Positions 3,234 to 62,373 of a stretch of DNA of 64,000 nucleotides are shown piece after piece. The stretch covers positions 1 through 64,000 of the IMG/VR virus record IMGVR_UViG_3300033121_001553. One strand, written 5' to 3'. The position numbers and the translations under genes were made by a program. The notes beneath the pieces were generated by a model that ran no database searches, was not told the DNA's origin, and was given only the letters and a program-made list of their open reading frames with translations. The first letter of the stretch is position 1, and each line of letters opens with the position of its first letter. This DNA is from a virus. Its lineage: Duplodnaviria > Caudoviricetes.

Positions 3234-3902
3234 TAAAATATCGAATGTGTTGAAGTAGTTTGAACCCGCGCGTACTATCATCGCTTTGATGTTGTCTTCG
3301 CTAAATTTTGTAAGCGATGTTGCTAGACTGACGATACGTTCGTTGTTAGCTGTCATTACAGCTGCTAGCGTAGCGTAGTCATTATTCTTCTCGTAAGCGT
3401 TATTAAGCACAGCAGCATCTGGATCATTTTTGTACACTTCGCAGTCGTCGTTTGGATCTGGTGTCTGCGGATTTTCGTAGTCGTCCAAAGGATACTTACC
3501 ACGTCCGCTACTGTACTGTTTTTTCCATCCGCTACGTGCAGTCTTACTAACATAGGTTCTGTCAGATATGAGTCGTCCAGTTATCTCGTATCCAAGCCCA
3601 TACATCAGCTTACCATCGCCAGCGACCATCTTGACTTGTAGCGCATTGTTGCACGGTAGCTTGGCTTTATTTCTTCCGTAAGTTGGGCCAACCCTGATCA
3701 TTCCAACGACGCGCTTCTGAAACTGCGCAACGTTAATAGTTGCGTCTGGCTTTTTGAGCAGCTCTTCGATTCCATCTGGATCGTACACAACAAGATCGTA
3801 AGTATTTCCGTACAGCAAAACTGTGTTGAGACAGAGCTTTGTATCTGCATCACGAGCAATGCTTTCGATCAAACGTTTGAGATCACTAATACGAATTTTC
3901 AT
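3234..3902 (-). CDS. Leader-bearing hypothetical protein (putative virion/internal head protein), paralog A; ends at TTA
   Basis: MKIRISDLKRLIES leader; DDYENPQTPDPNDDCEVY shared with the neighbour; in-frame TTA at 3234-3236 before the hairpin. Confidence 0.75.
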
Positions 3903-4138
3903 GTTTCGTTGTAACGATTGCTGAAGTAGATACCCGCTGCGTATTCGACTTCGCTTTCGACTTTCTTTTTACCGTATCTTGCGCAAAGTTCGTCGTGATT
4001 CGCAAGCATCGTATGCATAGCACCGCTAAAGTCATCAATTCCGCTGTAAGCGTTGTCAAGATAAAGCGCGTCTGGATCTGAATTACCGTACACTTCGCAG
4101 TCGTCGTTTGGATCTGGTGTCTGCGGATTTTCGTAGTC
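3432..4138. repeat. 51-bp exact direct repeat (3432-3482 and 4088-4138) inside tandem paralogs
   Basis: gtacacttcgcagtcgtcgtttggatctggtgtctgcggattttcgtagtc occurs twice. Confidence 0.9.
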
Positions 4139-4573
4139 ATCGAACGGAAATATTGTTTTTCCGTATGCTGCTTTGGCCCCACGCTTGGAAAACTGATTTT
4201 TCCAAGCAGCCCTGGCGGGGGGCTTGACAGTCTTTCTGTCGGGCATCAACCTTCCACCAGCATAGATGTACCCAAGCCCATACATCAGCTTGCCATCACC
4301 AGCGACTGAGTCAACCATCCATGCTCCATTGCACGGCTGACCGATTGCTGACTTTGCGTCTGATATTGAGATAGTACCGACAATCGCTTGAGCGAAATGT
4401 CCGCTGTCCATAACGTTCTGCTCTAGAAGCTCAGCGAATTTCCACCCATCGTACACATGAATAGAAATCCTATCATTTGATGCCTTATCAACATACAAAC
4501 ACATACTATCTATTGAATTTGCGTTAAGCGCCGCTTCTATAAGCGTTCTTAGCTTGCTTAGTCTAAGCTTCAT
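3899..4573 (-). CDS. Leader-bearing hypothetical protein, paralog B
   Basis: Start at MKLRLSKLRTLIEA; shares PCN..VAGDGKLMYGLGY and DDYENPQTPDPNDDC with paralog A. Confidence 0.75.
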   Translation of the reverse strand: MKLRLSKLRTLIEAALNANSIDSMCLYVDKASNDRISIHVYDGWKFAELLEQNVMDSGHFAQAIVGTISISDAKSAIGQPCNGAWMVDSVAGDGKLMYGLGYIYAGGRLMPDRKTVKPPARAAWKNQFSKRGAKAAYGKTIFPFDDYENPQTPDPNDDCEVYGNSDPDALYLDNAYSGIDDFSGAMHTMLANHDELCARYGKKKVESEVEYAAGIYFSNRYNET

Positions 4574-4594
4574 GTAACAACTTAAAATAGTCAC

Positions 4595-5605
4595 ATGATA
4601 AAGTACTTGGGATCAAAAAGACTGCTTGTATCAAACATTGCTGACGTAGTTGCAAGATTTGATAATGTTTCATCATTTGCTGATGCGTTTAGCGGCACAT
4701 CGCGCGTTGGGTATCATTTCAAAAAATGCGGCAAGAGGGTGCTTTCGAACGATGCTGCGAGATATGCGTACACGTTCGCGATGTGTTACATTACGGCTGA
4801 CGCGAAAAAATACGCTGACGACGCAAGCAAGATAATCTCAGATCTGCAAAAGTTGCCGGGCAAGTACGGGTACTTCACAGATACGTTCTGTGTTCGTTCG
4901 CGATTCTTGCAACCGTTCAACGGTGAAAAGATAGACGCAATGCGCGATGAAGTCGCGAGACTGTCGTTGGATCCCGTGCTTGAAGCAGTCGTGCTAACAT
5001 CGATAGTCGAAGCAGCGGATCGTGTTGACTCTACAGTCGCGTTGCAGTCTGCGTATCTGAAGAAGTGGTCGAAACGTTCCTACGACAGTCTAACACTTCG
5101 ACTGCCAGAGCTTGTTGACTCTAACGAACGTTGCGAAGCATTCTGCGGAGACGCGTCAGACTTTGTTGCGTCTATCGATGCAGATCTTGTCTACATAGAT
5201 CCGCCGTACAATCAGCACAGCTATATTGGCAACTACCATGTTTGGGAAACGCTTGTTAGATGGGATGCGCCAGAGCACTTCGGCGTAGCGTGCAAACGTA
5301 GAGACTACAACAGCGAAAGCATGAAAAGCGATTACAATAGCAAAAAGAAATTTCTATCAACTTTCAACAAGTTGATCCGCAGTCTAAAGTCTAAATACGC
5401 GATTGTTTCTTTTAGCAATGAAAGCTTTATCACGTACGATCAGGTTGTTGAAATACTCATGTGCATGGGAAATGTAAGCGTTGTTTCGATCCCGCATAAG
5501 CGGTACATCGGTTCAAAAATCGGTGGAAGCACGAATCTCTCTGGCGTAAGAAGCGGAGGCCACGCTAGCTGCGTTGAATACTTGTTTTGCCTTGATATGA
5601 CGTTA
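4595..5605 (+). CDS. DNA adenine methyltransferase (D12/FokI-like N6-adenine MTase); ends at TTA
   Basis: KYLGSK, DAFSGTSRVG (motif I), YIDPPYNQH (motif IV); first in-frame TTA at 5603-5605. Confidence 0.88.
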
Positions 5606-5615
5606 CAATACGCTC

Positions 5616-5645
5616 GTGTAATCTGTGATATCAGCAACATATAAT
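5616..5645 (+). promoter_or_regulatory. Putative sigma70-like promoter
   Basis: GTGTAA 5616-5621, 18 nt, TATAAT 5640-5645, start at 5650 or 5662. Confidence 0.5.
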
Positions 5646-5649
5646 AATA

Positions 5650-6372
5650 TTGAAAGTTTTTATGAAACTAATCGAAAATTTTCTCAAAGCTGGCTCTGAC
5701 TATGATCTGCGTATCGAATGCACGTATGATAAGCTTTACAAAGTTTCGCTAAGTGCCGTTATATGCAGCATCGAGGGAGGCAGCATATTTCTGCAGCGTG
5801 AAGCTGATACATTTGAAGAAGCATTCACGAATGTAGCGATAGACTGCTGCAGACTAAATCTCAACGATGGTGGAACGCTCAACGATGGTCCACTATTTCC
5901 CAAGCTGCACATCTTTATGCAAAATTCGCAGCTAAAAACAGCTGCGTACAAAGAAGCCAAACAGAAGATCTACGACGCAGATAACGATGATCTGCGTGAT
6001 GCAAAACAGTACGTTTATCTTGTTACGAATAAAAAGATAACAGATCCACAGCTTCTAACTTGTTTTGCGCATTACAGCGTACGCCCTAACATCGTGTATC
6101 AGAACGCAGACAACGCTATCAAAAAACCGCTAAATTATTACGCTAGTAGGGCAAGCGCTATGCTTGTAGACGTACAGTCTAATGTATGCTTGCTGTACGT
6201 CGCAAAAGTCATAAATTGCGCTCGTAATGTCATCGTGAACATCGATGATGAAACGTTGGCTGACTACGACTACGAAAAATTCTTTGATACAGTGGATATC
6301 AATTTCTACAGGGACTTCGCCGCAGCAGCAAAGTATGCTACATGGTGCACGATTAATACGAGATCATCATGA
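5650..6372 (+). CDS. Hypothetical protein
   Basis: 240-aa ORF; alternative ATG at 5662; ATGA overlap with the next gene. Confidence 0.7.
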   Translation: MKVFMKLIENFLKAGSDYDLRIECTYDKLYKVSLSAVICSIEGGSIFLQREADTFEEAFTNVAIDCCRLNLNDGGTLNDGPLFPKLHIFMQNSQLKTAAYKEAKQKIYDADNDDLRDAKQYVYLVTNKKITDPQLLTCFAHYSVRPNIVYQNADNAIKKPLNYYASRASAMLVDVQSNVCLLYVAKVINCARNVIVNIDDETLADYDYEKFFDTVDINFYRDFAAAAKYATWCTINTRSS

Positions 6373-7130: not shown

Positions 7131-7150
7131 ACTCGTTTAGTTAGATTTAA

Positions 7151-7180
7151 ATGCAATCTAACCACCTCATATGGTAAGAT
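7151..7180 (+). promoter_or_regulatory. Putative sigma70-like promoter (extended -10)
   Basis: ATGCAA 7151-7156, 18 nt, TGG-TAAGAT ending 7180, ATG at 7186. Confidence 0.5.
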
Positions 7181-7185
7181 AAGTT

Positions 7186-8651: not shown

Positions 8652-8654
8652 AAA

Positions 8655-9456: not shown

Positions 9457-10646
9457 AGGCAAGACTCGCTAAAAAAATTGATCATTACAAAACGATCTAT
9501 AAGATCGCCAACGCTGGTGGAAAGTTGGCGGAAAATTTCGTATTCAGCGTTGTCAGCGTGCTTAAAGAAATAAAGTCAGACAAAATTCAAGACATTATCT
9601 CGCCGTACACGGCTGCTTACGACTTTTTGTCTTCGATTCAAGAAAACATGCTAAGCATCAGATTCATATCTGATCTTGGCACATTTGGATATGTACAAGC
9701 TATCGAGAGTGAGATCTACGACAGCATATCAGAGCTCTTCGAGAGCTGCGTCATTGGAACGATCAACGCGCGTTGGGATGAGCAAAAGCTAAAGATCTCG
9801 AAGCTTGATGACATAGTATTCATTACGTCTGTAAGCGGACGACGTGGTGGCTGCGCTTATGTTCATGAAAATGACGTAAATAAAGCGCGTGCGCTTATCT
9901 ACGACAAGCTTGTGCAAAAGTACGGCAAAAAGATATTCATAGAAACTGTTACCAGCAAAGATCTTTCAACGCATCTGAAGATTTTTCGAGACACAAGTAT
10001 TGATAAGAACTTGCATCGCTACAGCGCGATAGACTTCGTTAAACGTATCGTCAATACACACAATGGTTCGTTTGCTCTTGTCCTTTACGGCAATCCCGGT
10101 ACGGGCAAAAGCACGATCTCAAGAATGCTAGCAGAGCAGCTGTTCGAATCGTATATACGATTCGACGTTAGCGGGAAGTTTACGCTATCGAACGTTATTG
10201 TAAGCGCTTGCAGAACATTTCAGCCGGAATGCGTTATCATCGACGACATCGACAGGTCATCAATGACTTCTGGCGAGATGCTCTCGTTGATTGATGCGCT
10301 CAAGCAGCAGTGCAAGTGCATCATCGCAAGTGTTAATGATCTGAAGTCACTTGGATCAGCTGTGCGTAGACCGGGACGTTTTGACTACGAGCTTCCAGTG
10401 AATGGGCTGGAAGAATCGATAAGACGAAGCGTGCTCGGCGACGAACTGTACGAATGCTTCAACGACGCTGTGTACGACTGGCCGATCGCGTATCTGCTAC
10501 CTTTGGCGAACGCTTACAAAACAATGTCTGAAGAAGATGCAATGTGCGTCTATTTCAACCTGTCGCGCAGATGGCGAGCCGATGGCGGTAGAAAGAAACG
10601 ATTTTCTATCGGTGCTGTAGAAGAAACAGACGATGCAAATGAATTA
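9453..10646 (+). CDS. AAA+ ATPase; ends at TTA
   Basis: Walker A GNPGTGKS, Walker B VIIDDID, RRPGRFD; ATG at 9453 overlaps the previous TGA; TTA at 10644-10646. Confidence 0.85.
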
Positions 10647-11608: not shown

Positions 11609-12019
11609 ATGCCACTAGACGTACAAAGAGCCGGAATTAATTCGGTCGTTGAATACCAGGCGAGCGCATTGCCATGGGTAACATCATCGACCGCAAGCAC
11701 AGCTGTTACAGAGTACAATCTACCAAAAGTAACCAAATTCGTAACTGTCACGAATCACGGTTCGTCAAGCCAGCAGCTCAGGCTTGGATTTACGCGCAAC
11801 GGTGTATCTGGCGTAAGCTCGCAGCAATACTACTACATGATAGACGGCGGGCAGGCGCTTACATTTGATGTGAGAGTGAAAGCGCTGTATGTACGTGCCG
11901 ACGGTGGTACGATAAGCTACAGCTTGATGTGCGGTCTTACAACGATCGACTCTAATCTCATGCCGACGCTGAGCGGTACGCTACCAAGCGGTGACAGCGG
12001 ATGGGCAGGGGTTGGTTTA
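11609..12019 (+). CDS. Putative structural protein (beta-rich); ends at TTA
   Basis: S/T/G-rich; YQASALPWVTSS; ends ...GWAGVG then TTA at 12017-12019. Confidence 0.65.
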
Positions 12020-12590: not shown

Positions 12591-14168
12591 ATGGAAAACG
12601 TAGAGATACCAACGATAGTTGTCGGTGAAGATGCAAGACGTGGTGTGTTGGGTGGTATGCGTGCCGCAGCACGAGTTGTTGGCACGACCATGGGTCCAAA
12701 CGGTAAAACTGTTATCGTCAAGAAAAGCGACGGTAAGCCAATACTCACGAAAGACGGTGTAACAGTGTGTAAGTCTGTCGCATTGAAGCATCCAGTAGAA
12801 ATGATCGGTGCTCAGCTGCTGATGGATGCCGCCAGCAAAACGAATGAACTCGCTGGCGACGGCACAACGACAGCGACAGTGCTCGCGCATGATATGTGCG
12901 AGAAAGCGATGAAGTACATCGTGTCAAACGTGTCTGTGAATGAGCTACGTCGTGGTATAGAGCACGCGACAAATAAACTGTCAGAAGAGCTTGAGTCGAT
13001 CTCAGTCGCTGCTGACTGCGGTAATGTGCTTTCACTTGTCGCTACGATATCTGCTAACGGTGAAGAATCGATCGGCAAGATCGTAGAACAGGCTTTCGCA
13101 AGCGTTGGTAAGAATGGCATAGTGACAGTTGAAGATGCTAAAAGCGCAGTTACGTCGCTTGAGCTGCTTGACGGTGTTAGATTCGACAGAGGATTTATGT
13201 CACCGTATTTCATAACGCATCAAGACAAAATGGTCTCGTTGCTTGAAGACGCAAATATTCTTATCGTCGATGGTAAGCTAACAAGCGCAGCCGATATCGT
13301 TCCAGCAATGCAAGTTTCAGTTGCAGCAAAGCGTAGCTTGCTCATTATTGCATCAGACGTTGAAGCTGAAGCATTGCAGACGCTCATCATAAATAAGACT
13401 CGCGGCGTTGCGAACGTGTGCGCTGTTCGTGCGCCGAACGACAAAACGTTTCTCGAAGATCTTGCGACTGTGTTTGGCGCAACGCTGTTTTCGCAGAGCG
13501 CCGGCATGAATCTCAAGTCTGTCACGAATGAACAGCTCGGTAAGGCAAAGAAGGTTGTTGCTGACTCAAAAACTTGCACCATGGTTTCACCTGGAGCCAC
13601 CAACCAAGCCACACAGAAGCTTCTAAAAGAAATCAGTGATATCCTGCAAGACCCAACTCTATCGCAGGAAGAGAAAGAAAAATTCCAGAAGCGCACAACT
13701 GTTTTGTCATCGAAGGTCGCTCTCATCAGGGTCGGTGGCTCAACAGAGATTGAGCTAGTCGAGCGCAAGCATCGTATAGAAGACGCTGTGTGCGCAGCTC
13801 GTGCAGCGCTAGAGCGTGGTATCATACCAGGCGGTGGCGTATCGCTAGCGCGTATCGCGTCAAAGCTAAAGTCAGCTCTGAAACCTGGAGATCAGCACTA
13901 CTACGGTTCTTACATCGTTTACGAAGCAGCGTCTGCTCCGATGAAACGTATCGTTGACAACGCCGACTTGAACGGCGGTAGCATCGTTGATGCTGTACCA
14001 ACGAGAGAAGATGATGAATGCTACGATGCTGTAGGACGTAAGTGGGTAAAGTGGATCGATGCTGGCATAATAGACCCTCTCAAGGTCACGTTGACGGCTC
14101 TTGAGCACGCATCGTCAGTTGCTGCAGCGTTCGTCACACTCGACGCTGTAGTTATTACTGATGACTTA
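12591..14168 (+). CDS. groEL: Phage chaperonin GroEL; ends at TTA
   Basis: TMGPNG, TKDGVTV, GDGTTTATVLA, FDRGFMSPYF, GIIPGGG, GIIDPLKV; only in-frame TTA at 14166-14168 after VVITDD. Confidence 0.96.
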
Positions 14169-14350: not shown

Positions 14351-14593
14351 ATGTCAAAAAAGAAGCAAGAAGAAGAAGAAGTTGAAGTAGAGAAGTTCGT
14401 TGAACTACGCGGTGTTGTTCTCGAGGCAATGCCAAGCGCAACGTTTATCGTTAGCTGCGATGGTCACTCTGTCCTAGCACGCGTGAACGGTAAGATGCGT
14501 CAGTCTAAGATACGCGTTTTGCCGGGTGACAATGTTGTTGTGCAAGTTTCTCCGTACGATATGAGTTTGGGCAGAATATCGCAAAGGCTCTTA
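14351..14593 (+). CDS. infA: Translation initiation factor IF-1; ends at TTA overlapping the next ATG
   Basis: GVVLEAMPSATF, LARVNGKMR..KIRVLPGD.V.V.VSPYD...GRI; TTATGA junction. Confidence 0.93.
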
Positions 14594-14787
14594 TGAGTCA
14601 TGCTATACTGCCAGGTGACTACGTTGATACGCACATCGCGTTCACACGCGATGTTAGTGTTTTGCGAATCGTACTCTCTGTTAGAAACTACGCGTTCGGT
14701 AAGATACTAACGTTGATATCAGTTACAAGCGACTCGATAGATATTTTTGAAATGGACAGCGCACTTTGCAGAAAGATCAACATCTTA
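14593..14787 (+). CDS. Small hypothetical protein; ends at TTA
   Basis: ILPGDYV start; TTA at 14785-14787 removes a 95-nt overlap and precedes TATTTA at 14793. Confidence 0.55.
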
Positions 14788-15706: not shown

Positions 15707-15741
15707 AAAAAGCCAGGTGGATTTTATCCACCTGGCTTTTT
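15707..15741. terminator. Bidirectional intrinsic terminator
   Basis: AAAAAGCCAGGTGGAT-TTT-ATCCACCTGGCTTTTT, a perfect 16-bp inverted repeat with U-tracts on both strands, between convergent genes. Confidence 0.9.
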
Positions 15742-16221
15742 TAATTTCTTAATACGCTGTTTTGCAGCTATGCTTTTTGTAGAGTCATTTAGAAGATAAC
15801 CAACTGGACGTTCACTAATATCGTCGTTTTTTGACGCTTCAAACTTTTTAATATTTTCAAGTTTATTTTTTTCATCATCCCAGATGCATTTGATATCTTG
15901 AACAATATCGTTCAGCGCTTGTAGTGAACCGTTCGCAGTCGCGTATTTTTCTTCTGCTTCAAGCTGTAGCTGCAGAATAAGACTTATGCATTGATTTGTG
16001 TATTTTATCGCATACTCCGACTCCTTCACTGTCAGCGTATTTGAATTTCTTTGTTCATAAATTGACTTCAAGTATTCATTAAGTCTCTTTGCACCAATAC
16101 CAAATGCATTTTTTGATGCAAAGAGACTTTTCACTTCCTCTTCGTACGCTTCTTTCTTATTGTCTGCTTTTATGCCAACAAGATATATACCTGCAATTTT
16201 TCCTTCATGAAATTCGCTCAT
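15742..16221 (-). CDS. Hypothetical coiled-coil protein; ends at TTA
   Basis: In-frame TTA at 15742-15744 abuts the terminator. Confidence 0.7.
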
Positions 16222-17866: not shown

Positions 17867-18316
17867 TAAATATGGATACGTTGCGAGTATGTTGCTCCCA
17901 CTACGCGGTGCGTAGTTCAAATTTATATTGCTACCAGTAAGAGTGTAGTCATTGCTTGCTCCCTGCTGTTGTAGTATACCATTTACATAAAACATAAGAG
18001 CTGTAGCTGGGTACGGTGTATGTTGAAGTCCGTAATAAATATTTGTACCATCTGCGCTTCCAGAAGGAGTTTCCATCCACGCTATGGTGCTGCCAAGAGA
18101 CGAGCTGACTGAAATTATCAATTCGCCTTGCGCACCAGTATCTGTGATCAGTATACCAGTGCCAGCTTTGATGACACGAGCGTTCGGCGGAATCGTATAA
18201 GAACCACTAACAACAGCGAATTGCGTGTTTTGTATATGAGAATCAATTTGAGGATGAGTATTACTACCAATCCCTTCTAGCTCATCATGATTCTCGATTA
18301 CTCTTACAGCTGTCAT
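17867..18316 (-). CDS. Putative structural protein (beta-sandwich tail module); ends at TTA
   Basis: ETPSGSADGTN..F.VNGILQ..G.SNDYTLTG..I....AP..GS.ILATYPY then TTA; removes a 170-nt overlap. Confidence 0.7.
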
Positions 18317-25055: not shown

Positions 25056-25396
25056 ATCGAATAATCACTCGTGGGCTTGGTACGACACGCGGTGCAGCAG
25101 GACGCGCTGGTCTTGTAACATCTGGGTACGGTGGTATTTTTACGTCTATTGCTGAATTTGCAAGAAGAATTAGATACGGTAAATCTGGCGACAGACGTGA
25201 CTACTACGATAAGATTGTGGTATGGGCCGGTCTAAAAACAGTAAATGATGAAAAACCAAATGAAAAGATAAATGGTACTGACTCAGCTACGATACCTGGT
25301 CCAGAAATCAAAGTTAAGTCATCGCTTGTTCATGCTGGCGCAGCTTATGCATTCGAAAAAATAAAAATCATCGTTCGACGATTGAAAGATAATTTA
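25052..25396 (+). CDS. Hypothetical protein; ends at TTA
   Basis: IITRGLG..LVTSGYG start; TTA at 25394-25396, 5 nt before the next ATG. Confidence 0.65.
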
Positions 25397-25401: not shown

Positions 25402-25839
25402 ATGAACGAAGCTGTTGAACTAAACGTTGACGAATCAAACGAACTGTCATTCATGATCAAGATAGAGGGCGCGCAGTCTAACGAAGCGCGTGTTCGTCTC
25501 GTTCTCGAGGGCGACGGCGGTATATCGTACATGTTCGCTGGTCGTGGTACGAACGAAGATGGTGTCGTAACGTTCAAGATTCCATCGATGGAGCAGAAGC
25601 TCGCAGAGGGAACGTACAACGCGCGTGTTGAAGTGCTCGTAGAGAGCAGGTACTTCGAACCAACAACATTCAAACTAAAATTCAATAAACCTGTGAAAGT
25701 TGTATCAGAAGGTATCGTATCAAAGCACGTTGAAAAGCAAAAAGCCGTAACTGTAACAGCTCAGCCGATACACGTTGTTCAACGTCAAACAAGTGCTGAT
25801 GACACCACAAAACGTAAAAAGATTATAAGATTCTCATTA
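25402..25839 (+). CDS. Hypothetical Ig-like / structural protein; ends at TTA
   Basis: LSF.IKIEG..RLV..G.V...IP....EG.Y...VEV.V...YF.P; TTA at 25837-25839. Confidence 0.65.
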
Positions 25840-25850: not shown

Positions 25851-26708
25851 ATGACAAGAGCGTTGGTGCTATCGGGCGGTGGAGTAAAAGGAGCATTTCA
25901 AGTTGGAGCGCTCATGCACAGCATGGGCGATCTTGGACGTGACTACGACATCATCTGTGGTGTGTCTGTTGGAGCGCTTAACGCAGCTGGACTTTGCAAC
26001 GTCAAACGTGGCATGCCGTCGTACGCATCGTCAAATCTCAGGCAGTTCTGGGAGCATGAAGTTTCTAGCAAGACCATCTACAAACGATGGTTTCCGTTTG
26101 GTCGACTTCATTCGCTTTGGAAGAAGTCTGTATACGACTCTTCTCCGCTTCGCAAGCTTGTCCAGTCAAACATCGATTACGAAAAAATACAACGTTGCGG
26201 AAGAGACGTTGCTGTTGGCGCTGTCTGTCTGAATACTGGTGAGATGCGCTACGTAACACAAAAAAATGAAAATTTTATCGACTGGACAATAGCCTCTGCG
26301 AGCTTTCCGATTTTTTTTGAACCAGTAGAGATAGAAGGACAGCTATGGAGCGATGGCGGCATCAACAACATAACTCCGCTTGGGCAAGCCATTCGTATGG
26401 GTGCAACTGAGATAGATGTGATCGTATGCTCACCGCGTGGCAGACAAGGATGGCGTTCGATGACGAAGCGAGCTGTCCCAGATCAGATCATGCGTACGTT
26501 TGATCTTATGTCTGGATGCATCGCCGATAATGACTTGCATTTCTGTGAGCTAAAGAACGATCAGCCGACATTCAAGCATATCGCTGTCAACGTTATCGCG
26601 CCAGAAGCAGAGCTAACAGACAACTCGCTTGACTTCTCACGTTACACGATCGCTCGTTGCATCAATGCTGGGTACGAGTCAGCGCTGAAGACCTTCAGCG
26701 CTTCTTTA
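25851..26708 (+). CDS. Patatin-like phospholipase 2; ends at TTA
   Basis: GGGVKG, GVSVG, DGG; with the TTA stop it is 285 aa and co-terminal with its 289-aa paralog. Confidence 0.9.
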
Positions 26709-31577: not shown

Positions 31578-32597
31578 TAACGCGTCTTTTTGCGAACGCT
31601 TATAAATGATGTCATATACCATGTCATCGTAGTGAAGTTCATTAGCGACGCGATTAATAATTTCAGCGCGTGCAACTTCATCGTACAAGTCAGCATGACT
31701 AAGCTCTGTTCTATAGCCTTCGAGAATTTGTCTGCCGACTGCATAGATGATTTTTTCTAGCTCTTTGTAGTAGTCAACTATGCGCTCATACGAAAACGTG
31801 ATCATTCTTGCAAAATATCCCTGCTGTCGTTCGTAAAGTTCAGCGATGATCTGCTTAGCGATGTTTACTGTTGCTGATGCTGAACGACTCTTTTCAAGAA
31901 TATACGCTGGGCTGTGAAGCGGATTATCTCGCAACAGTTCTTTCATTGTCTTTAGTGCAGACTTTAGCACAAGCTCATGTTGTTCAACTGCATAGCTATT
32001 AGCAAGAAAATAGTTATAAGCTTTTTTAAGTTTGAGATCTTTGCACAGACGAAGAGCGATGACTATCTCGCCGTACGTATTTCCAAGACAGAAGTTTATG
32101 ATCAATGTTGCGATCGACGCGATCTTAGCAGATGTTTGTTCGACGGCTTGATTGTACGAATCGACAAACATCTCTTTATCTGTAAAGTTAACAGCATCTT
32201 TTTTAAGCTTATTCTTGATCCATATCTTGTATTTTTGCAGAGCGTACATAAGAACATAATTGAACGCTGTTGTCGAGCTATTTTTGTAGATCGGTTCAAA
32301 CGGTTGCGCGAATACGTCGCCGGGATCGTCGCTCATATGCTTAGCGCTGTACTCAGCAAAGTCAACTGCAAAAATCAACAACTCAGCCGCTGTTGCGTAG
32401 TCAACAGAAAATTCTATGCATATCCTCAACGCAGCTGTTCTTATGATTATTCTACAGATCAGCAAATAGTCATTAAACGAAAAAACATTTTCGCTCTCAT
32501 GTTGAACTATCATCCTCCCAGCTTCAACAATAGACTTGTAATGTTTTCGTAGCTGTACTATGTAAATTCTAATTATTTCGTCAACAAATTTATCCAT
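31578..32597 (-). CDS. Hypothetical helical protein (array member); ends at TTA
   Basis: TTA at 31578-31580; V.FA..YSA and RLCKDLKLKKAY motifs shared with 33036 and 34188 genes. Confidence 0.75.
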
Positions 32598-37424: not shown

Positions 37425-37895
37425 TAATTTTTTGTTTGTCTTCACGTTCTCAAGCATCGTTTCAGCGGGACCTTTAAGAACAAGCTTTGCTTTTGTGCCG
37501 TCATCAAGCATGACATAAGTCGGTTGTTCAACATGCTGAATTTCGGCTTCATTCACATTTTGATATGAACTTTGTACATTCTGTAGTCGATACTTCTCCG
37601 TTCTATCACCAATTTCAGCGATATAAGCATCGATAACGTTATTCATGCGTTTCTGGAGTTCGTCTCCGACTTGTGGTATTGACGTGTAAATAACACAGTT
37701 CGATGACAGCTCTTCTAGAACTTCTCTATTCGACGAAATGACACCGTCTTTGCTGATTTCTGCATAAACATGACGCTTCTTTTGACCATCAAGCGCAACA
37801 GTAATGTTAATCTCTACTATGGCAACAACCTTTATCACAAGTTTGCTACCAACAGACAGCAAATACAGTATCTGTCCAACGTTGTAGTCATTCAT
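37425..37895 (-). CDS. Hypothetical protein; ends at TTA
   Basis: MNDYNVGQILY start; TTA at 37425-37427 before the TATTTA of the next gene. Confidence 0.65.
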
Positions 37896-38187
37896 CTTGT
37901 TCTGATTCACTTCCATCATCAGCATCGCTATTATACTTTACGATGTTGATCGAGTACATCTGACTCATGCTTATCGCGTGATCTGGCGCTTCATCAATTG
38001 GAACATTAGCCGCTTTGCACAATTTTACGAGTTTGTTCCAAATTTTTGAATCTTGCTTCGCATCCATGAGTTTGCTTACTGGATCTGATACTTGTGAATT
38101 CGACACGACTATCGTAACGCCCATAAGCGCTCGCAGATGCTCAAGCTCATCACGACTCAACTTCAAATCGTATGTTTTTGTGGCCAT
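37888..38187 (-). CDS. Hypothetical protein
   Basis: 99 aa; ATG overlaps the upstream TTA (TTATG). Confidence 0.65.
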   Translation of the reverse strand: MATKTYDLKLSRDELEHLRALMGVTIVVSNSQVSDPVSKLMDAKQDSKIWNKLVKLCKAANVPIDEAPDHAISMSQMYSINIVKYNSDADDGSESEQDE

Positions 38188-38435
38188 AATTCATCACCGA
38201 GCAAAGCGTAAAATTCATCGTACGTATTTTTGTTATCAACAGACTCTACTATCTTTTTAACTCTCATTACTGCTTTAAGAGTTTTCATGTCGATTTTATC
38301 AGAGAACTCTTGGATGAGTTCCTTCCGCGACTCCGAGAGCTCAGCGAGCTCTTGTTCAAGTGCAGTGTAACGTTCAACAAACTCTTTGACATCATTCGGC
38401 TCATTCAAAACTTTATCTTCGTTTTTCTTCTTCAT
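38187..38435 (-). CDS. GapR/DUF2312-like (T4 DsbA-like) DNA-binding protein; ends at TTA
   Basis: VKEFVER...LEQE...LSE.RKEL..E....D.KTLK.VMR.KK pattern. Confidence 0.6.
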
Positions 38436-40196: not shown

Positions 40197-41699
40197 TAAG
40201 ACTTCTAGATAAAACTTTGGTCTAAAATTCATCGACACACCGTAGAATTTTAGATACGTTTGTATCGCGTTGTGCGTAAAGAGATAGAAGCCTTCTTCTG
40301 TAATGACAACGAGCGCCGTTGAACCAACAAATGCATTACCAACATTGAGTCTATCATTGATTTCTGTTATATACGATGTTGGATCAGCGTACTCAGTTCC
40401 AACTGCTGCTACTGCATCTGCTAGACTTACGATGCCATCTTCGTACGTGTATTCTGACTTGCTACCGAGTAGCTTCGCAAGTTTAACGAGTTTCGCTGTT
40501 TCAAGTTCACGCAGTTCATACGCTATATCTGGATCTATGTTGAGTAGCGTCTCTATCGCTGTTGTTCTTGCATCGAACATCTTGTACGGAAAAAGTTTTG
40601 TAAGCTCCCACATCGCGCGCATAATACCGTGTATGTTCGATATGAATGGCTCTGTTAGGGTTCCGCTGCTAAATGTCTTTTCGTAATGACTAATGAAATT
40701 TTTTGCGTACTCTGAAATCTTTATGATTTTTTCTATATTTGGAAGCTTTGCTATTGCTGAACGTGGTATCGAGCTGTAGACACTAACGTAACGTTTTATC
40801 GTGTTGAATATCTTAGAATACTCGACGTACACAGTTGAAGTAAACTCGCTTGATCCATGCACACCTGCGCGTATTACTGGACCGCTACTTCTTGTTATGC
40901 TTTTTACTTCGAGCTTCTGTCCGCCAGGTAGCAGCACATCGTACGTAAATGTATCAGAGCTTGATCTCTGACCGTTGAAAAGTGCGGCGACGAGCATCTC
41001 GCCGTCAGCGTCATCTTTCGATATGCGCAGCGAACGTGCATCGTAGTATTTCTCGTTACCGTCAGCGTCAACGTACGGTACACGATTCCACGGGACAAGT
41101 TCGTTATCATTGTGCAATGTGATGAACGACTCGTACGTTACGGGTGAACCGTAACTGCGTGTTGCCGACTTATCAAACTTCTGCTCTTTCTCAACTGCGC
41201 TAACAATCGCGTAGTCACTCATCTCAGGAAACATCATCGAGATACGTCGCTGTAGAACAGCAGGTATCGATGGACGCTTCTTTAGGAGCGCTGCTATGTT
41301 TCGTCCAACAGAGTCTTGCGTAGTTTCATATTCGCTATCAAATGCCAGCTTATACGCATCAGAAGTATCTATTGTTGTACCATCTGACAGCTTTACATCT
41401 GTATGAAATGAAAGATACGAAGCAACAAGCTCATTAAACGCATCACGTTGTTCTTCGTTGGCAGTTTTAAGAACATCGTGTATTACAGTAGCACCGATCT
41501 TTCTATTACTACCTGGCTTTAGTATCTTAGTCGCTGACGTAAGAAATTTTTGTGTATCTTCATTTTCGTGAAACAGGTCCCACAAGCCAATGAGCGCGTT
41601 TATTTTTGCGAATTCTTTAACACGCTTATCAAGCAAACCTTCATACAGCAAAAATTCATTCGCTATATTTTCTTTTAGCTGGCTTAGCCTCATTCTCAT
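40197..41699 (-). CDS. Leader-bearing protein with a PD-(D/E)xK nuclease-like domain; ends TTA-TAA
   Basis: MRMRLSQLKENI leader; GEMLVAALF...YDV.....KLEVKS. Confidence 0.6.
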
Positions 41700-43893: not shown

Positions 43894-43977
43894 AGCGCAT
43901 GCATAAATACACATCGCTAAGCAAGTTAATACTACGAATATCTCTAATCTAACTCCCCGTCTCAGATGAGGATTTAG

Positions 43978-44724
43978 TAAAACTTTAACAAGAAGTATCG
44001 ACTGTGATGAGTCTGACGTTGACTGAACATTTAGTCTTCTGTCAATAATCGTGCTGCTTCCAAAACAGTCTTCTCCTTCGTTAACGTTTCCTATTCTATT
44101 TGCAACGATAACAGCAGCGTCGAGTTCTTCTGCGAGTTGTATCCACTCATCTAGCGGACCAGCTGTTTTACCAGTTGCAGAACATGGTACGGCAACGATA
44201 TCAACAGAACCCTTCTTATAGAATTGAACATTTCGTTTGCCGTAGAACGGATGCGATTCACGGTAAAGATTTCTGCTATCACCAGAGATAAGCAAACCAA
44301 CTCGACCAAACGGCGTCATCGCAACTGGTGAAGGATCATCGCCAGGCATCGCCCAAACATGCTCATTACGATGAAGATTGTGTTTACGTGTTTTTGCTAC
44401 AATACTTCCCGCTGGATCAACGAGAGCTGCTGAGTCGTATATACCTCCCTCATTCAGCTCTACGTATCCAAACGCGATATAGCACGCGTTGTCTAGCGCA
44501 AGCTCAGATATGAACTGCAGCTCGCTGCTATCGCTCGTTTGCGCGTGTTCTATCGCTTCGTCTATGGTTGAGATCTTGCTACCGTTGAACGAACGTTCTG
44601 GCAAAACGATGAGCTTTGCGCCGCCAAGCGCAGCAGCACGAACCATCGCTGCGATCTTTTTCTTCATTTGATCTTGCGACTTCTCATCCCTATACTGCAG
44701 CGCAGCTACTTTCACAGAGCTCAT
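43978..44724 (-). CDS. Carbon-nitrogen hydrolase (nitrilase) family; ends at TTA
   Basis: VAALQ, LIVLPE, YDSA, RKHNL, GLLISGD, VANR.G; 248 aa when stopped at TTA 43978-43980. Confidence 0.85.
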
Positions 44725-44728: not shown

Positions 44729-45394
44729 TTATACTCCTATTTGTAATACAGCACCACGTGCAATGTCGCTCTTAAGTCTTGACATATCGCGTGGAGAAGC
44801 TGTGTATCCAAGCATATCAGCCTTCTTACGACCAATAGACTTTGCATCTTTTACTACCTGATCAGCAAGCTCTTCCCACGTTTCATCTTCGCTTGGGCCT
44901 TGGCGCATGTAGAAATCATTGAAGGCAGCTGATGTTGCCATAACTTCAGACTGATTTTCGATAAGAAAATTTATTTCATCGTCAGTTGGCGGATCTTCGC
45001 TTGACTTAAGCATCGACAGATAGTCAAAAAATGCTTCATCAAGTATGTCTTTGATCTTCTCGATATGCTCTTCTGTGATTCCAAGAAATACATACGGATT
45101 GTTAAGCTTCTCAAGCGTTACGAATTCGATCCTCTTAACGCCGCTAACTGTTAGGCCAAGCGCATCAGCAACGTCTTCAAGCTTTTTGCCGCCTTCAAGC
45201 GATCTGTAACGACGTCTCTCAGCGTCTTCCTGATCATCTTCAAGCTCATCTTCACGTGTCCAACGACCGCCTGGCGCGTATGTATCGTCGATCTCGTTTA
45301 GTCTCTGTGACTTTTTGTTTGCAGCTTCAGCAAGCTTTCTGCTGATTATCTTGCGTACTTGTGAACGAATGACTTTTTCTAGTTGCTTATCCAT
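44729..45394 (-). CDS. Leader-bearing protein with a sigma70 region-4-like HTH
   Basis: KLEDVADALGLTVSGVKRIE...LEKL; TATTTA upstream. Confidence 0.6.
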   Translation of the reverse strand: MDKQLEKVIRSQVRKIISRKLAEAANKKSQRLNEIDDTYAPGGRWTREDELEDDQEDAERRRYRSLEGGKKLEDVADALGLTVSGVKRIEFVTLEKLNNPYVFLGITEEHIEKIKDILDEAFFDYLSMLKSSEDPPTDDEINFLIENQSEVMATSAAFNDFYMRQGPSEDETWEELADQVVKDAKSIGRKKADMLGYTASPRDMSRLKSDIARGAVLQIGV

Positions 45395-45420: not shown

Positions 45421-45717
45421 TAATTTTTCTTGAGTCGCTGTAACGTTTGGATTACCAAAACGCGCATCAGTCCAGCGTCTACCAAAATATAGCCCAAGCA
45501 GCGGTACAAAATACGCTGTTGCTGCTGTTGAATCGAATTGTCTTATGTTCACTGGACCGATTTTTTCAAATATGCTTAGCATGTAAGCAAGTGTTGTTAC
45601 CCAAAACGATATGGTTACAAACGTAACAGTGATGCTAGGGTATCCAGCGCTGTCTTTTATCCATAGCCAACTTGCTGCTGGCGTGATCTCTTTTGACTCA
45701 TTATTTTCGTTAGCCAT
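45421..45717 (-). CDS. Holin-like two-TM membrane protein; ends at TTA
   Basis: Two TM segments, LGLYFGRRWT; TTA at 45421-45423. Confidence 0.55.
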
Positions 45718-46165: not shown

Positions 46166-46551
46166 CTTTTCGCCTCAAAGTCAGCGCCAATAACATCAGC
46201 AAGCTTACGTGCAAGCTCTTCTGGTGAGTCATTTGACTCTTTTATGATTTTTTCAATCTCATCGCGCTTTCGTTTCTCTAGTTCATCAAGCGAAATCTTA
46301 TACTGCTGCTCAAGCTGCGCAAGCTTATCTTGATACTCTCGTTCTGCCGTCTCTCGCTTTCGTTGTTCTTCTTCATACGCTCGTTTTGTCTCGTCTATCT
46401 CGCGTTGACGTATCTTTCTTTCTTCGCTAAGAAGTTCTATCTGCTGAGACAACGAATGTTGACGACCAAAAAATACCCATGCGATAACTGCACCGATGAT
46501 CGCAAATCCCCAACCGATCCATGCAAATGCTTTTTTAATTTTTTCGATCAT
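46162..46551 (-). CDS. N-terminal TM plus coiled-coil protein (i-spanin/Rz-like)
   Basis: TM segment followed by a long charged coiled coil. Confidence 0.55.
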   Translation of the reverse strand: MIEKIKKAFAWIGWGFAIIGAVIAWVFFGRQHSLSQQIELLSEERKIRQREIDETKRAYEEEQRKRETAEREYQDKLAQLEQQYKISLDELEKRKRDEIEKIIKESNDSPEELARKLADVIGADFEAKR

Positions 46552-46745
46552 AACTTTCTTCTGTTATCCAACGAATTTGATATTCTTGTAAGTTTTCTAT
46601 TGACATCATCGATGCCAGACAGCACTGACTGCTGACGCAAAGAAACGTCTGCAAGACCAGCCCACAGACGTTTTATCTCATCAGAGTCTTGTATCGATTC
46701 TGTAACAAGACGCGCTATTATTTTCTTTATGTAAGCTCTTATCAT
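46551..46745 (-). CDS. Small hypothetical protein; ends at TTA overlapping the next ATG
   Basis: MIRAYIKKIIARLVTES; TTATGA junction. Confidence 0.55.
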
Positions 46746-53548: not shown

Positions 53549-53752
53549 TAATTTTTTACCAACAACTATGTTGAAACGACAATGTACAATATCGTCATGA
53601 CCAGAAGACGCAGACACAAAAGTTGGACAGGCTCCATCTCCAACGTCTGCTAGTTGTTTTACAAGACAAGCAATTGCTTGAGCTGCCTCTTCTCGTGACA
53701 GCTCAAGCATAAATTCAGTAGTGTCTTTTGACAGCTTATGCAACTTTGCCAT
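53549..53752 (-). CDS. Small hypothetical protein; ends at TTA
   Basis: TTA at 53549-53551 stops it before the promoter. Confidence 0.55.
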
Positions 53753-53792: not shown

Positions 53793-54389
53793 TAAAACAA
53801 GCGCAGACTTCTTTAGTCTTTGCTGCAGAAGATAGCAGCTTGACTCATGCTCATCTTCTATGCCAGCAAGCATATTGTCAACACCACGCGTCAAAGTACC
53901 GCTTTCTTTCATGCAGTCTGCTGCTGATGCACAAAATGCCATGAACGTAACCTCAGCTTTGAGTGCCATTGACGCAAGCTGCTCTGCTGACGCACCTGTT
54001 GCCGAAGCGCCATCGCACATTACTTCAAACGCGTCTTGCACTAGTTCAGCGTGAGTTACGCAACTCACGATCGAAGAGTCGCCGCTGGTGCCAACAGCTT
54101 TTTCTGCGAGAACGTCAACATTACCGTCTGCCGTACCATACAACCGTGAGAATAGTTCATGATCTGCGTAAAACTGTTGACCCATCGTCTGCCAATGACA
54201 CGTCTGCAGTATCATAGCAAGAGCACGTGCACACGCAGCAAGAACGGCAAGCTCGCACGACTTTGAGCCACCAAGCTTTTCGCACATATTTTCAAAAATA
54301 AGCGCGTAGTTCGTTTGTCCAAGCAAAAGAACAAACGTAGCTTCATCAAGCTTACGATGCTTAGATGAAGAGGAAGTTATTTTTCTCAA
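53793..54389 (-). CDS. Dps/ferritin-like protein; ends at TTA
   Basis: HWQT.G..FY.DHELF.RLY......D.LAEK; EDEHE...YLLQQR; TTG start with AGAGGAG SD. Confidence 0.8.
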
Positions 54390-55203: not shown

Positions 55204-55226
55204 CGTCGTGCGCTCCCGTAGCATTT

Positions 55227-58736: not shown

Positions 58737-58738
58737 CT

Positions 58739-59683: not shown

Positions 59684-59698
59684 GATCAAATTTGCGCG

Positions 59699-60526
59699 TA
59701 ATATCTCAAACACAAACTGCACTTTTGGATCACCGTAGTCAGCGTCACCAACGTTCACAAGTACATTCTTCATTTCAAGATGCCTGCATCGACCATGCGT
59801 ATGACCGCTGTATATCTCGAACAGAACATTTTCGTGTTCTTCGGCACGTTCGGATATGAGAGCGCCAAGCGAAGCATTACAGTACCATGGAAGAAATCCA
59901 GTACCTGACTTCGTTCCTCTGTACATACAAGCATCAACGTAAGGCGGCACATGCGTAGCGATGATGATTTTTTTCGCACCATCAGCAAGCGCTGTATCAA
60001 TTTTATTGATAAGCGCATTGTTATCATCACGCGCTATTTGCTTCGCGCATCGAGCGACAACATCTTTCATTGTGTTAAGAATCTGCGGCGACAGCACACC
60101 GCCTGTCGTCATCATGAATTCTTCTATTGAACGCCAGTCGTTCATGACAAAGTTAGCTGCGTTGTAGTTACCAGCCAACGTATCGTACCAGCCGTCGCAT
60201 CCAACAAGCGCAACATCACCAAAACGTATTGGCGTAGACTGCGTTAGATAAACAAGATCTTCCAGCTTCGACAACGCAGGAAAAACTTTTTTACGCATCT
60301 GTTTGATGCTGCCACCGTAGTAGTCGTGGTTGCCAGCAACGTAATAAATCGGCAGCAATGTCAGCTGCTGTAGTTGCGTTAGATGACTAGCGAAGTCTAT
60401 CGAGTTTGAGATATCGCCCGTGAGCAACACAGCATCAGCGTCTTCACACGATATGCGAGACGCCAGCTTAAGTGCGCAGTCACGGGCACTATCGAGGTGA
60501 ACATCGGTGCACCATGCTATCTTCAT
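59699..60526 (-). CDS. Calcineurin-like metallophosphoesterase; ends at TTA
   Basis: TDVH, TGD, AGNHD, THVPP, SGHTH; 275 aa when stopped at TTA 59699-59701. Confidence 0.9.
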
Positions 60527-60532
60527 GTATTA

Positions 60533-60562
60533 ATAATACTTCATTTACATGGTGCATTGCAC
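60533..60562 (-). promoter_or_regulatory. Putative sigma70-like promoter
   Basis: GTGCAA, 18 nt, TATTAT, 6 nt, ATG at 60526. Confidence 0.5.
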
Positions 60563-60567
60563 ACATT

Positions 60568-61050
60568 TAATTTAACTTCAATCTTTATTGACTTTTCTAG
60601 CTTTTTATTCACTCGAACAACTAGTAGTCCGTCTTCGTAAGTTGCGCTGAATGATTTTACATCAATATCTTCTGGAAGAAGAAGCACACAAGTGCTTTTA
60701 TCTTTCTTCTGCTTCTGCTTGCATGCGATATTGAGATATCTTTTTTGCTTTTGTGTTTCAACGCTTAGCTCAATGCTATCTTTTTGCGCTCCAGCAATTT
60801 CATGTTCAAGCACATAGCCGCCGTCTCGCTCTTTAAAGCATGACTGTGTATATTCGTCAATAAATGACGTAATCATCAACTGTCCCGTCGTTTGCGGGTA
60901 GATTCTATCATCGTACGGAATGTACGGGTACGGAAACACATTATACTTTTGAAGTTTTTGTCGATCAAACGTTATTGTGTTTGGCGAGACAACATAGTCA
61001 CTGTCATCAAGAATACCATTCATGTTATTAAGAATTTTCTCTAGCATCAT
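60568..61050 (-). CDS. Small heat shock protein Hsp20; ends at TTA
   Basis: EIAG..K..I, LPEDID....SATYEDGLL.V...K..IEVK then TTA. Confidence 0.8.
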
Positions 61051-61095
61051 TTCCTGTTACCTCGAAACTTGTATTTATGCATTCAACGAAAAAAG

Positions 61096-61479
61096 TAAAT
61101 AGCCCTGTTCTATTCTTTTCACATTTACTTTGCCCTTGTTGATATACGCATCGTATAGCTCTTCAGCGCTTATACCAGACGCAATAACAATTTCAAAATA
61201 ATAATGAAGTACATCAACAAGCTCTTCAAGATACAGCCCGTGATCTATCTCATTCGTATCTGTCAGACGATGTCTCTTCGAGTTACGAAGATGCTGTATC
61301 GCTTCGAATAGTTCCCCAACTGTCTCATAAGAGATTTCCTTCAAAAATCTTTGACCATCTTTTGATGATAGATCAACTGGAAAATTTGGAAATCCGCGTT
61401 TCTTCTGCAGCAAGAACATAAATTCCCGTTGCTGCTCCATCATCACATCAAGCTTATCTTTCACCGCTGCTTCATGCAT
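61096..61479 (-). CDS. MazG-like dNTP pyrophosphatase (dUTPase/dCTPase); ends at TTA
   Basis: E..EL.EA, EELVDVLHY, Y..K..VN..R...GY then TTA. Confidence 0.8.
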
Positions 61480-61705
61480 TCTTATCACCGCTAAGTCTCT
61501 TAGCTTCTGCTAGAAGATGCTCAAGATGAGCGACAACCATCTTATCATATTCAGCCGTTTGCACGACTTCTTCATCGTTGTCTGCTATTTCAACACGAAT
61601 TGCCATCATAAGCTCTGTAACATCTGTTCCTGTCATCATAGCTTCTTGCAAAAGCTGCACAATTCGCATAATAAGCTTCGTTGAAAATCTATATTCTTTC
61701 TTCAT
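61472..61705 (-). CDS. Hypothetical protein
   Basis: IVQLLQEAMMTGTDV; 77 aa. Confidence 0.65.
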   Translation of the reverse strand: MKKEYRFSTKLIMRIVQLLQEAMMTGTDVTELMMAIRVEIADNDEEVVQTAEYDKMVVAHLEHLLAEAKRLSGDKNA

Positions 61706-61716
61706 AATTTCCAATT

Positions 61717-62373
61717 TAACTTGAAAGGTTCAGCAATACAACCATTTGAGTTAATAAGAGCAAAAGCCTCCAACGATAGTCTAAAATTACCGTTTGCAAC
61801 AAGTTGCTCTATCATCTTTCTTGCAAGCTCACGTACTTCGTACTGCGCGTGTACTGAGTAACGCAACTTCACAAAATGCACAAAACTACGAAAATTGAAC
61901 ATCACATCAGCTTTTATTTGATTACCGTACGGTAGATAAAATCTTGCTGACTCTTTTGCTCTCTTACGGGAGATGCCAGACGCAACTAGTCTATCGAGAC
62001 AGCTGTGATATCTGCTCAACGACTCTTCCATATGCGAGATATACAGCAACTGTTCTTCTTCGCTCCAGTCTGATGGAACATAGAATTTATCATCCTTCAG
62101 CTCTTTATAACGTGCTGACTCTGTGTTGACTGAAACGCCTATGCGATGCTTCAGTATATGAATATGCGTTGCTATGTCTGTCGTCACGATAAAATGAATC
62201 GAGCTTTTTTCGAAAGGCGTTTCGTGACCATTGCTAGCAAGCATCGTAAGCAGCTGACCTACACGTCCACGTTTATCATCAGTTAGCTCTCTCGACGTTG
62301 ATGTCCACGCTGACAACGCGTGTGTTTCATCACCGCCGTAAGTGCCAACAAGCTCTATTTTATTATCGTACAA
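61717..62373 (-). CDS. thyX: Flavin-dependent thymidylate synthase ThyX; ends at TTA
   Basis: GHETPFEK, KHRIGVS.NTESARY, E.AR..LP, NFRS..HF..LR...HAQ.E.R; probable TTG start. Confidence 0.92.

Follow-up and report, generated by a model that had tools for sequence, protein, structure and literature searches.

To our knowledge, the natural changes of the genetic code known in bacteria and phages give codons an amino-acid meaning, and new stop codons have been seen only in organelles with small gene sets. Stop-recoded phages were reportedly described by Ivanova et al. 2014 and Borges et al. 2022, with TAG reassigned to glutamine and TGA to tryptophan. In Streptomyces, TTA is leucine, is read by one transfer RNA (tRNA), the bldA product Leu(UAA), and lies inside a subset of the genes of a high-GC genome. 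In the mitochondria of labyrinthuleans (Thraustochytrium; NCBI table 23), UUA has passed from leucine to stop, and mtRF2a, with a replacement of Ser204, was proposed as its reader (PMC12574857). The plastids of peDinoflagellates use UUA and UCA as stops, more than half of the plastid genes ending non-standardly in two of three species, while the mitochondria of Marsupiomonadales and Pseudoscourfieldia use UUA and UUG; changes of Ser204 in pRF2 were proposed for the former and changes of mtRF1a for the latter, and the cognate tRNA gene is absent in these organelle cases (PMC12574857). We analyzed the codon TTA (UUA in the transcript) in a stretch of 64,000 nucleotides (nt), hereafter the window, which is the first third of the 186,819-nt IMG/VR virus record IMGVR_UViG_3300033121_001553 (GC content 43.7%). 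The record comes from an uncultured T4-like jumbo phage with approximately 300 genes. The best explanation of what we found is that UUA in the genes of this phage is very probably not leucine but one of four stop codons, the others being UGA, UAA and the rare UAG. Such a change from sense to stop, proposed by the first-pass annotation of the window, is supported at the level of sequence by the C-termini of homologues, the ends of Pfam profiles, the DNA that follows TTA, strain polymorphism, the tRNA repertoire and approximately 130 relatives.

The codon change is the same as that of table 23, set in a phage-bacterium system. As in table 23, UUA is absent within genes and is placed at the stops of homologues; both use a translation system of bacterial type. 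Unlike the organelle with its few dozen genes, this is a phage of approximately 274 kilobases (kb) in the bacterial cytoplasm, and no modified release factor was found in its examined portion. Thraustochytrium mitochondria, which the first-pass annotation gave as the precedent for UUA as stop, are indeed one, but they are not the only one, since several organelle lineages share the change (PMC12574857). The phage resembles the peDinoflagellate plastids in the large number of non-standard gene ends (32% TTA here), and its own 34 tRNAs do not include Leu(UAA). Unlike in those plastids and in the mitochondria of Marsupiomonadales and Pseudoscourfieldia, only UUA has changed: TCA and TTG retain their usual reading, with tRNA-Ser(UGA) and tRNA-Leu(CAA) both in the phage's set. 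With the stop-recoded phages it shares a non-standard code, a suppressor tRNA(CUA) and many tRNAs, but the direction here is from sense to stop, and the TTA ends are evenly spread rather than confined to late genes. The singling out of TTA among the leucine codons recalls Streptomyces bldA, although TTA here never occurs inside genes and the genome has a GC content of 44%. A full-text literature search found no published sense-to-stop code change outside mitochondria and plastids, and no UUA stop in a phage or bacterium. The capture of a sense codon as a stop would be possible in a large genome on bacterial ribosomes, with about 300 genes, a third of them ended by UUA.

We called genes with a simple home-made caller; the counts of TTA based on open reading frames (ORFs), the enrichment in the last 20 codons and the tally of conserved columns reported below are independent of it. 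When genes of the whole record are modeled with four stops, TTA is found in none of their 60,133 codons and represents none of their 4,523 leucine codons, so that the lack of in-frame TTA first noted in DnaE, GroEL, the adenine methyltransferase and some spot-checked genes extends to the entire record. Other codons ending in A are common or even favored in the same genes (ATA 1,400, TCA 1,362, AGA 1,063 and CTA 914 occurrences). In the 119 ORFs with 200 codons or more, the central parts contain only 17 TTAs in 38,832 codons, whereas the other two frames have 938 and 414; nine of these apparent internal TTAs are in antisense shadow ORFs, and the remaining eight lie in short spacers that join two adjacent in-frame genes. 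A small tally in the manner of Codetta, as had been suggested for this window, encountered TTA in none of 3,995 conserved alignment columns, and hence at no conserved internal leucine. The same tally assigns TTG and CTN to leucine, TCA to serine, AGA and AGG to arginine and TGG to tryptophan. Because it returns the usual meanings for these codons, the rest of the code is standard; TTG, with 843 codons, aligns to leucine, and TCA to serine. We also considered CGG as a second odd codon, but it is merely rare (37 of 60,133 codons, scattered along genes; no tRNA-Arg(CCG) was seen). Tools for code inference that are limited to amino-acid meanings would not flag a UUA stop.

At the ends of genes the situation is reversed. 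Calling with four stops returned 206 genes in the record, of which 94 end with TGA, 66 (approximately 32%) with TTA, 39 with TAA and 7 with TAG. The coding density is 0.965 under this code and 0.939, with 188 genes, under the standard code. In the window, TTA ends 30 of 84 genes and TAG four. All 28 TTAs that the first-pass annotation listed as gene ends are present in frame (as TAA on the plus strand for genes of the minus strand), and independent four-stop calling recovered every one of them and added two, at 44744 and 46732. When only standard-code ORFs are considered, TTA is 27-fold enriched in their last 20 codons, compared to 3.6-fold for the next codon. TTA ends account for 22-39% of the genes in every 20-kb bin, and neither a size class nor a strand lacks them. 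They are found also in a block of small, early-looking genes, where internal TTA is likewise avoided, and both the capsid and the scaffold genes have them. At seven TTA ends, stop and start overlap as TTATG, the analogue of TAATG. The claim that TAA, TAG and TGA all continue to act as stops holds for TAA and TGA, while TAG is barely used (7 of 206 ends); an amber suppressor tRNA is among the tRNA genes of the phage. No gene among the four-stop calls of the record is interrupted by TAG or TGA, and the seven TAG ends soon reach other stops. A recoding of TAG was ruled out, as no gene is broken by it. In three of the seven TAG-ended genes, TTA occurs within 0-3 codons after the TAG, as though a leaky TAG had been given a backup.

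The positions of the TTAs coincide with the ends of homologous proteins. For DnaE we collected 51 viral and 80 metagenomic relatives, with a best identity of 53-54%. In the aligned C-terminal regions, 24 of 24 homologues end at the column of the TTA at 55227, and the further 40 residues of DnaE under the standard code have no counterpart in them. The median offset of the homologue stop is +1 residue for DnaE (44 loci) and 0 for the MazG-like gene (29 loci). Overall, homologues stop 0-3 residues from the TTA in 10 of the 12 TTA-ended genes whose homologues reach the C-terminus. Homologues that include the tails beyond TTA were looked for, and the tails proved to be without counterpart. The first-pass annotation had recognized typical family C-termini before the TTA in Hsp20, the MazG-like protein and GroEL, and profile matches agree with it: HSP20 reaches position 100 of 102 at residue 158 of the 160-amino-acid (aa) Hsp20, dUTPase_2 reaches 162 of 162 at the last residue of the 127-aa MazG/dUTPase_2-like protein, and Cpn60_TCP1 reaches 488 of 490 at residue 523 of the 525-aa GroEL-like protein. 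The CN_hydrolase profile similarly ends at residue 245 of 248.

By its sequence, the DNA behind the TTAs behaves as non-coding DNA. The residues after TTA had been described as junk that runs into terminators or the next gene, and four kinds of evidence agree with this description, namely hairpins, gene starts, a frequency of TTA typical of non-coding DNA (it recurs in the tails at 0.9% per codon) and an insertion/deletion polymorphism. The TTA ends of the window, together with the features found next to them, are as follows.
3234..3236, minus strand: TTA ending a 222-aa gene (3237-3902); the standard ORF runs 6 codons into the following hairpin
Directly after the TTA at 3234: GC-rich hairpin of 9 base pairs (bp), -16.8 kcal/mol, z -4.8
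5603..5605, plus strand: TTA ending the 336-aa adenine methyltransferase gene (4595-5602; MethyltransfD12); tail of 12 codons
7128..7130, plus strand: TTA ending a 253-aa gene (6369-7127); second TTA 3 codons on; the standard ORF has 59 extra codons and crosses the next gene start at 7186
10644..10646, plus strand: TTA ending a 397-aa AAA ATPase gene (9453-10643); next gene 21 nt on
12017..12019, plus strand: TTA ending a 136-aa gene (11609-12016)
14166..14168, plus strand: TTA ending the 525-aa GroEL-like gene (12591-14165); homologue stops 1-3 residues away
14591..14593, plus strand: TTA ending an 80-aa gene (14351-14590); TTATG overlap; TGA immediately next, hence uninformative alone
14785..14787, plus strand: TTA ending a 64-aa gene (14593-14784); next gene 22 nt on, overlapped by the standard ORF for 38 codons
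15686..15688, plus strand: TTA ending a 292-aa gene (14810-15685); the 36-codon tail holds two more TTAs; terminator hairpin next
15707..15741, no strand assigned: bidirectional terminator hairpin, perfect over 16 bp, with A and T tracts at its sides; the genes on either side converge on it and both end in TTA
15742..15744, minus strand: TTA ending a 159-aa gene (15745-16221)
17867..17869, minus strand: TTA ending a 149-aa gene (17870-18316); second TTA 2 codons on; next gene 7 nt on
25394..25396, plus strand: TTA ending a 114-aa gene (25052-25393); next ATG 5 nt on
25837..25839, plus strand: TTA ending a 145-aa gene (25402-25836); next ATG 11 nt on
26706..26708, plus strand: TTA ending a 285-aa patatin-like gene (25851-26705; Patatin at residues 5-181); second TTA in the 47-codon tail
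31578..31580, minus strand: TTA ending a 339-aa gene (31581-32597); next ATG 10 nt on
37425..37427, minus strand: TTA ending a 164-aa gene (37428-37919)
38187..38189, minus strand: TTA ending an 82-aa gene; TTATG overlap with the next start
40197..40199, minus strand: TTA ending a 500-aa gene (40200-41699); TAA immediately next, hence uninformative alone
43978..43980, minus strand: TTA ending the 248-aa CN_hydrolase gene (43981-44724); the 84-nt spacer holds three more TTAs
43941..43951, no strand assigned: 11-nt deletion polymorphism in the spacer after the TTA at 43978, in three other assemblies (L140, L143, L149)
44744..44746, minus strand: TTA ending a 216-aa gene (44747-45394); newly added
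45421..45423, minus strand: TTA ending a 98-aa gene (45424-45717)
46551..46553, minus strand: TTA ending a 64-aa gene; TTATG overlap with the next start
46732..46734, minus strand: TTA ending a 124-aa gene (46735-47106); newly added
53549..53551, minus strand: TTA ending a 67-aa gene (53552-53752)
53793..53795, minus strand: TTA ending a 198-aa gene (53796-54389); five homologues stop within 1-3 residues
55227..55229, minus strand: TTA ending the 1169-aa DnaE gene (55230-58736); next gene 23 nt on
59699..59701, minus strand: TTA ending a 275-aa metallophosphatase gene (59702-60526); stops of three homologues 1 residue beyond; ORF 143 codons longer under the standard code
60568..60570, minus strand: TTA ending the 160-aa Hsp20 gene (60571-61050)
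61096..61098, minus strand: TTA ending the 127-aa MazG/dUTPase_2-like gene (61099-61479)
61717..61719, minus strand: TTA ending a 224-aa gene (61720-62391); second TTA 4 codons on; two homologues stop at offset 0

The hairpin at 15707..15741 has a predicted stability of -26.2 kcal/mol (z -5.9), which none of 200 shuffled sequences equals, and the standard code would carry both flanking ORFs through it. Under the same code the CN_hydrolase gene is fused with the next gene into a 493-aa ORF, which the 11-nt deletion frameshifts and which public gene calls split at that point; if TTA is a stop, the deletion has no effect on either gene. Divergence among the assemblies of the phage is 0-1%. A stretch of 20,960 nt is 100% identical in one Logan assembly, and hence the TTAs are not the errors of one assembler; another strain is 99.1% identical. 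When single nucleotide polymorphisms (SNPs) are placed on the four-stop gene model, third codon positions are variable at 1.84%, compared to 0.43% for first and 0.34% for second positions, and sites outside the four-stop genes, tails included, are variable at 1.3%. All 23 TTA ends that are covered by other assemblies are invariant.

The phage has a near-complete set of tRNAs without a decoder of UUA. We found 34 tRNA genes, 12 of them in the record, 20 in an array just past its right end, which is cut by the end of the IMG/VR record, and two further on (L160:5381-7568, L160:9017-9953 and L193:12023-12425 for those beyond the record). They cover nearly all amino acids, none being seen for aspartate and cysteine. 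For leucine there are Leu(UAG) and Leu(GAG), which serve CUN, and Leu(CAA), and tRNA-Ser(UGA) is also present. A search for tRNA-Leu(UAA), already called for by the first-pass annotation, found none among the 34 tRNAs in the approximately 97% of the genome (approximately 265 kb) that we examined. Every two-codon NNR box has tRNAs with both U and C at position 34 (Lys UUU/CUU, Glu UUC/CUC, Gln UUG/CUG and Arg UCU/CCU), with leucine UUR, which has CAA alone, as the sole exception. The related phage G004 (322 kb), with normal use of TTA, has Leu(UAA) beside Leu(CAA), Leu(UAG) and Leu(AAG). The three leucine tRNAs UAG, GAG and CAA of the phage (L160:5571-5646, 5822-5895 and 6512-6587) measure 74-76 nt, with A73 and a variable loop of 5 nt. 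Their shape is that of class I, unlike that of normal bacterial tRNA-Leu, while the serine and tyrosine tRNAs of the phage keep long arms; short leucine tRNAs are also found in G004.

The reader of UUA, factor and host alike, we infer entirely. Release at UUA would be carried out by a class-I release factor that is relaxed about the second base of the codon. This factor would most likely be of the release factor 2 (RF2) type, like those proposed for the labyrinthulean mitochondria and the peDinoflagellate plastids, because the main stops UGA, UUA and UAA all conform to UNA and UAG is almost abandoned, and it would act in a system without tRNA-Leu(UAA). A divergent RF1, RF2 or ArfB in the phage itself, which the first-pass annotation had considered, was not found: in the approximately 265 kb there are no homologues of RF-1, PCRF or ArfB and no transfer-messenger RNA (tmRNA). 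PF00472 has no match in the phage, and PF03462 has only an 18-bit match inside a 712-aa ORF. With a bacterial RF2 and an ArfB-like protein as queries, tblastn found nothing better than E 1.4 in any of the collected phage DNA. A scan for the GGQ motif returned only chance-like matches, and a 136-aa GGQ protein (11609-12016) has no match to release factor families. We therefore rejected a release factor encoded by the phage, for which profile, tblastn and GGQ scans of the approximately 265 kb gave no credible candidate. Both the factor and the missing tRNA-Leu(UAA) are probably properties of the host, because no release factor gene occurs in about 97% of the phage and because the TTA ends are evenly distributed and include early-looking genes; for the latter reason, the altered reading must hold from the start of infection.

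It is possible, at slightly less than even odds, that the altered code is that of the host, a bacterium without tRNA-Leu(UAA), with a release factor that reads UUA and with TTA at the ends of its own genes too. If true, a free-living cell would here have a sense-to-stop genetic code for the first time, one that the phage would mirror and that would have been overlooked because gene callers run on to the next standard stop. A GroEL scan of species genomes for the host gave one irrelevant match, a literature search on the run and sample accessions yielded nothing of relevance, and the homologues of the superoxide dismutase of the phage are only approximately 60% identical and have no taxonomy attached. 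A UUA stop on this scale implies that some undiscovered factor recognizes UUA, and perhaps that the bacterial host itself works with four stop codons.

Among the other explanations, the one that survives best, although we consider it unlikely, is that UUA is an unassigned, 'hungry' codon. Ribosomes would stall there and then be rescued or drop off, with the help of ArfB-like proteins, tmRNA or PTH2, or would slowly read through with a near-cognate tRNA to a nearby stop. The lack of both tRNA-Leu(UAA) and a release factor in the examined portion of the phage would fit, and so would the presence of tmRNA genes in two relatives. A PTH2 gene also adjoins the amber suppressor tRNA; PTH2 is found, however, in a relative with normal use of TTA as well. 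The next in-frame standard stop follows a TTA end at a median of 6 codons, but such backup stops are no closer than after ordinary stops (median of 7 codons, Mann-Whitney P = 0.93), and some of the standard-code tails are 143-244 codons long. Above all, a third of the genes rely on TTA, including those for capsid, scaffold, DnaE and GroEL, and stalling or tagging would be very costly for them. Proteins tagged by tmRNA are degraded, and drop-off works efficiently only when the peptide is short. The TTA ends of the capsid and scaffold genes favor efficient release over stalling followed by rescue.

The genes that bear on rescue deserve a brief description. The amber suppressor tRNA(CUA) lies at 154237-154308 of the record, and the PTH2 peptidyl-tRNA hydrolase gene, itself TTA-ended, is 11 nt upstream of it (the pair spans 153911-154308; L052:8911-9308). 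We considered PTH2 as a specific enzyme for release at UUA; the match is real (E 8.6e-12), but because the relative in which TTA is normal also has PTH2, it is no evidence for a mechanism specific for UUA. The tmRNA genes are those of the related jumbo phages G001 (L202:1492-1836) and G002 (L203:1492-1858), and encode the tags ANNNNHFEYALAA and ANNNYHYEQRLAA, respectively. A +1 slip to T-TAA or T-TAG was rejected as a general rule, as the base after TTA is A in 12, G in 4, T in 7 and C in 5 cases, with a purine in 16 of 28.

It is very improbable that TTA is still leucine, extremely disfavored as in the bldA system and tolerated in short, unconserved C-terminal extensions that are translated. 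Many tails are indeed short, and the closest relatives are already low in TTA. However, other codons ending in A are favored, a tail contains the frame-breaking 11-nt strain polymorphism, and tails cross terminator hairpins and neighboring genes. TTA occurs in them at the non-coding rate, and homologues have nothing that corresponds to them. Moreover, reading TTA as leucine fuses unrelated genes, scaffold with capsid and CN_hydrolase with its neighbor. Standard gene callers will accordingly mis-annotate such genomes, with false C-terminal tails, fusions such as that of scaffold with capsid, and missed downstream genes. An artifact (systematic sequencing or assembly error, a modified base miscalled at stops or an altered record) has a negligible probability, as the same TTA ends recur in JGI and Logan assemblies made independently from many runs, errors at stops could not have erased the approximately 770 internal TTAs expected (17% of 4,523 leucines), and the strain SNPs show a normal third-position bias under the four-stop model.

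Some observations weigh against UUA as a stop codon. No gene for a release factor of the RF-1, PCRF or ArfB type and no tmRNA was found in the DNA examined. After many TTAs, a standard stop follows within a few codons, so that read-through would often be harmless. Among strains that differ by approximately 1%, we saw no switch from TTA to a standard stop. In 2 of the 12 genes whose homologues could be compared at the C-terminus, the homologues are longer, by 79 and 21 residues, with tails that still have no similarity to them; for the gene at 17870-18316, the similarity to two homologues stops at residue 151, and these are 79 aa longer.

The use of TTA in relatives sets the fourth-stop reading in an evolutionary context. 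Across 116 related loci that had sufficient coding sequence, TTA makes up a median share of 0.17 of the leucine codons. Low use of TTA is seen only in loci with a GC content of about 47% or above, and no locus below approximately 47% avoids it. In the closest relatives, L001 and L107 (51-53% GC), TTA represents 1-2% of leucine codons. L001 keeps the standard meaning, because its TTAs sit in the interior of genes. No closer relative with the same trait was found in viral and metagenome collections, where the best identity of DnaE is 53-54% and all relatives read TTA as leucine. The lineage may thus have nearly lost TTA first and captured it as a stop later, which fits the 1-2% use in the closest relatives. 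The phage offers a natural test bed for how specifically release factors read the second base of a codon, as well as for the theory that codons vanish before they are captured for a new meaning.

The phage has a gp23-like capsid protein, and even the closest of its cultured relatives are remote (Microcystis phage Mel-JY01 with 37% identity, and Flavobacterium phage 'immuto' with approximately 49% over part of the protein). We located other assemblies of the same phage by exact-protein look-up, in the JGI samples 3300045330, 3300045331, 3300045333, 3300045347, 3300045350, 3300045352, 3300045353, 3300045354, 3300045356 and 3300045372, and in the Logan assemblies SRR23702459-522, SRR32380191, SRR34753046-59, SRR14932665, SRR8944129 and SRR26337560. 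By walking along contigs we obtained a circular map, in which the right end of the record leads to a 171-kb JGI contig and from there to the left end. The resulting genome size of approximately 274 kb should be taken as an estimate, since it derives from contigs of slightly different strains; the record would represent approximately 68% of it.

Between the two ends of the record (L182; L178:1-700) there is a block of approximately 85 kb, composed mostly of small orphan genes, which reaches 48-61% GC in parts, compared to 44% elsewhere. No informative families were found among the proteins of this GC-rich region. Assembly breaks are frequent just upstream of a 181-aa gene at L178:77-622. Within the window, positions 4038-4087 form a locally divergent patch in the gene 3899-4594, with several gaps of 1-2 nt within 50 nt in one other assembly. 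Near the left end, an RNA ligase gene (PF09414) occupies positions 2067-3071 on the plus strand. T4 enzymes of this type mend tRNAs cleaved by host anticodon nucleases. The gene for a Fe/Mn superoxide dismutase is at 47666-48364 on the minus strand; its product has approximately 60% identity to many metagenomic, probably bacterial, proteins, and genes for thymidylate synthase, thymidine kinase and two sugar-nucleotide epimerases/dehydratases lie nearby. Finally, a UDP-glucose/GDP-mannose dehydrogenase gene at 151076-152149 of the record (L052:6076-7146) is seemingly interrupted: its C-terminal end has a weak match to Intein_splicing, and the remainder of the central domain is a separate ORF at L052:7846-8136.

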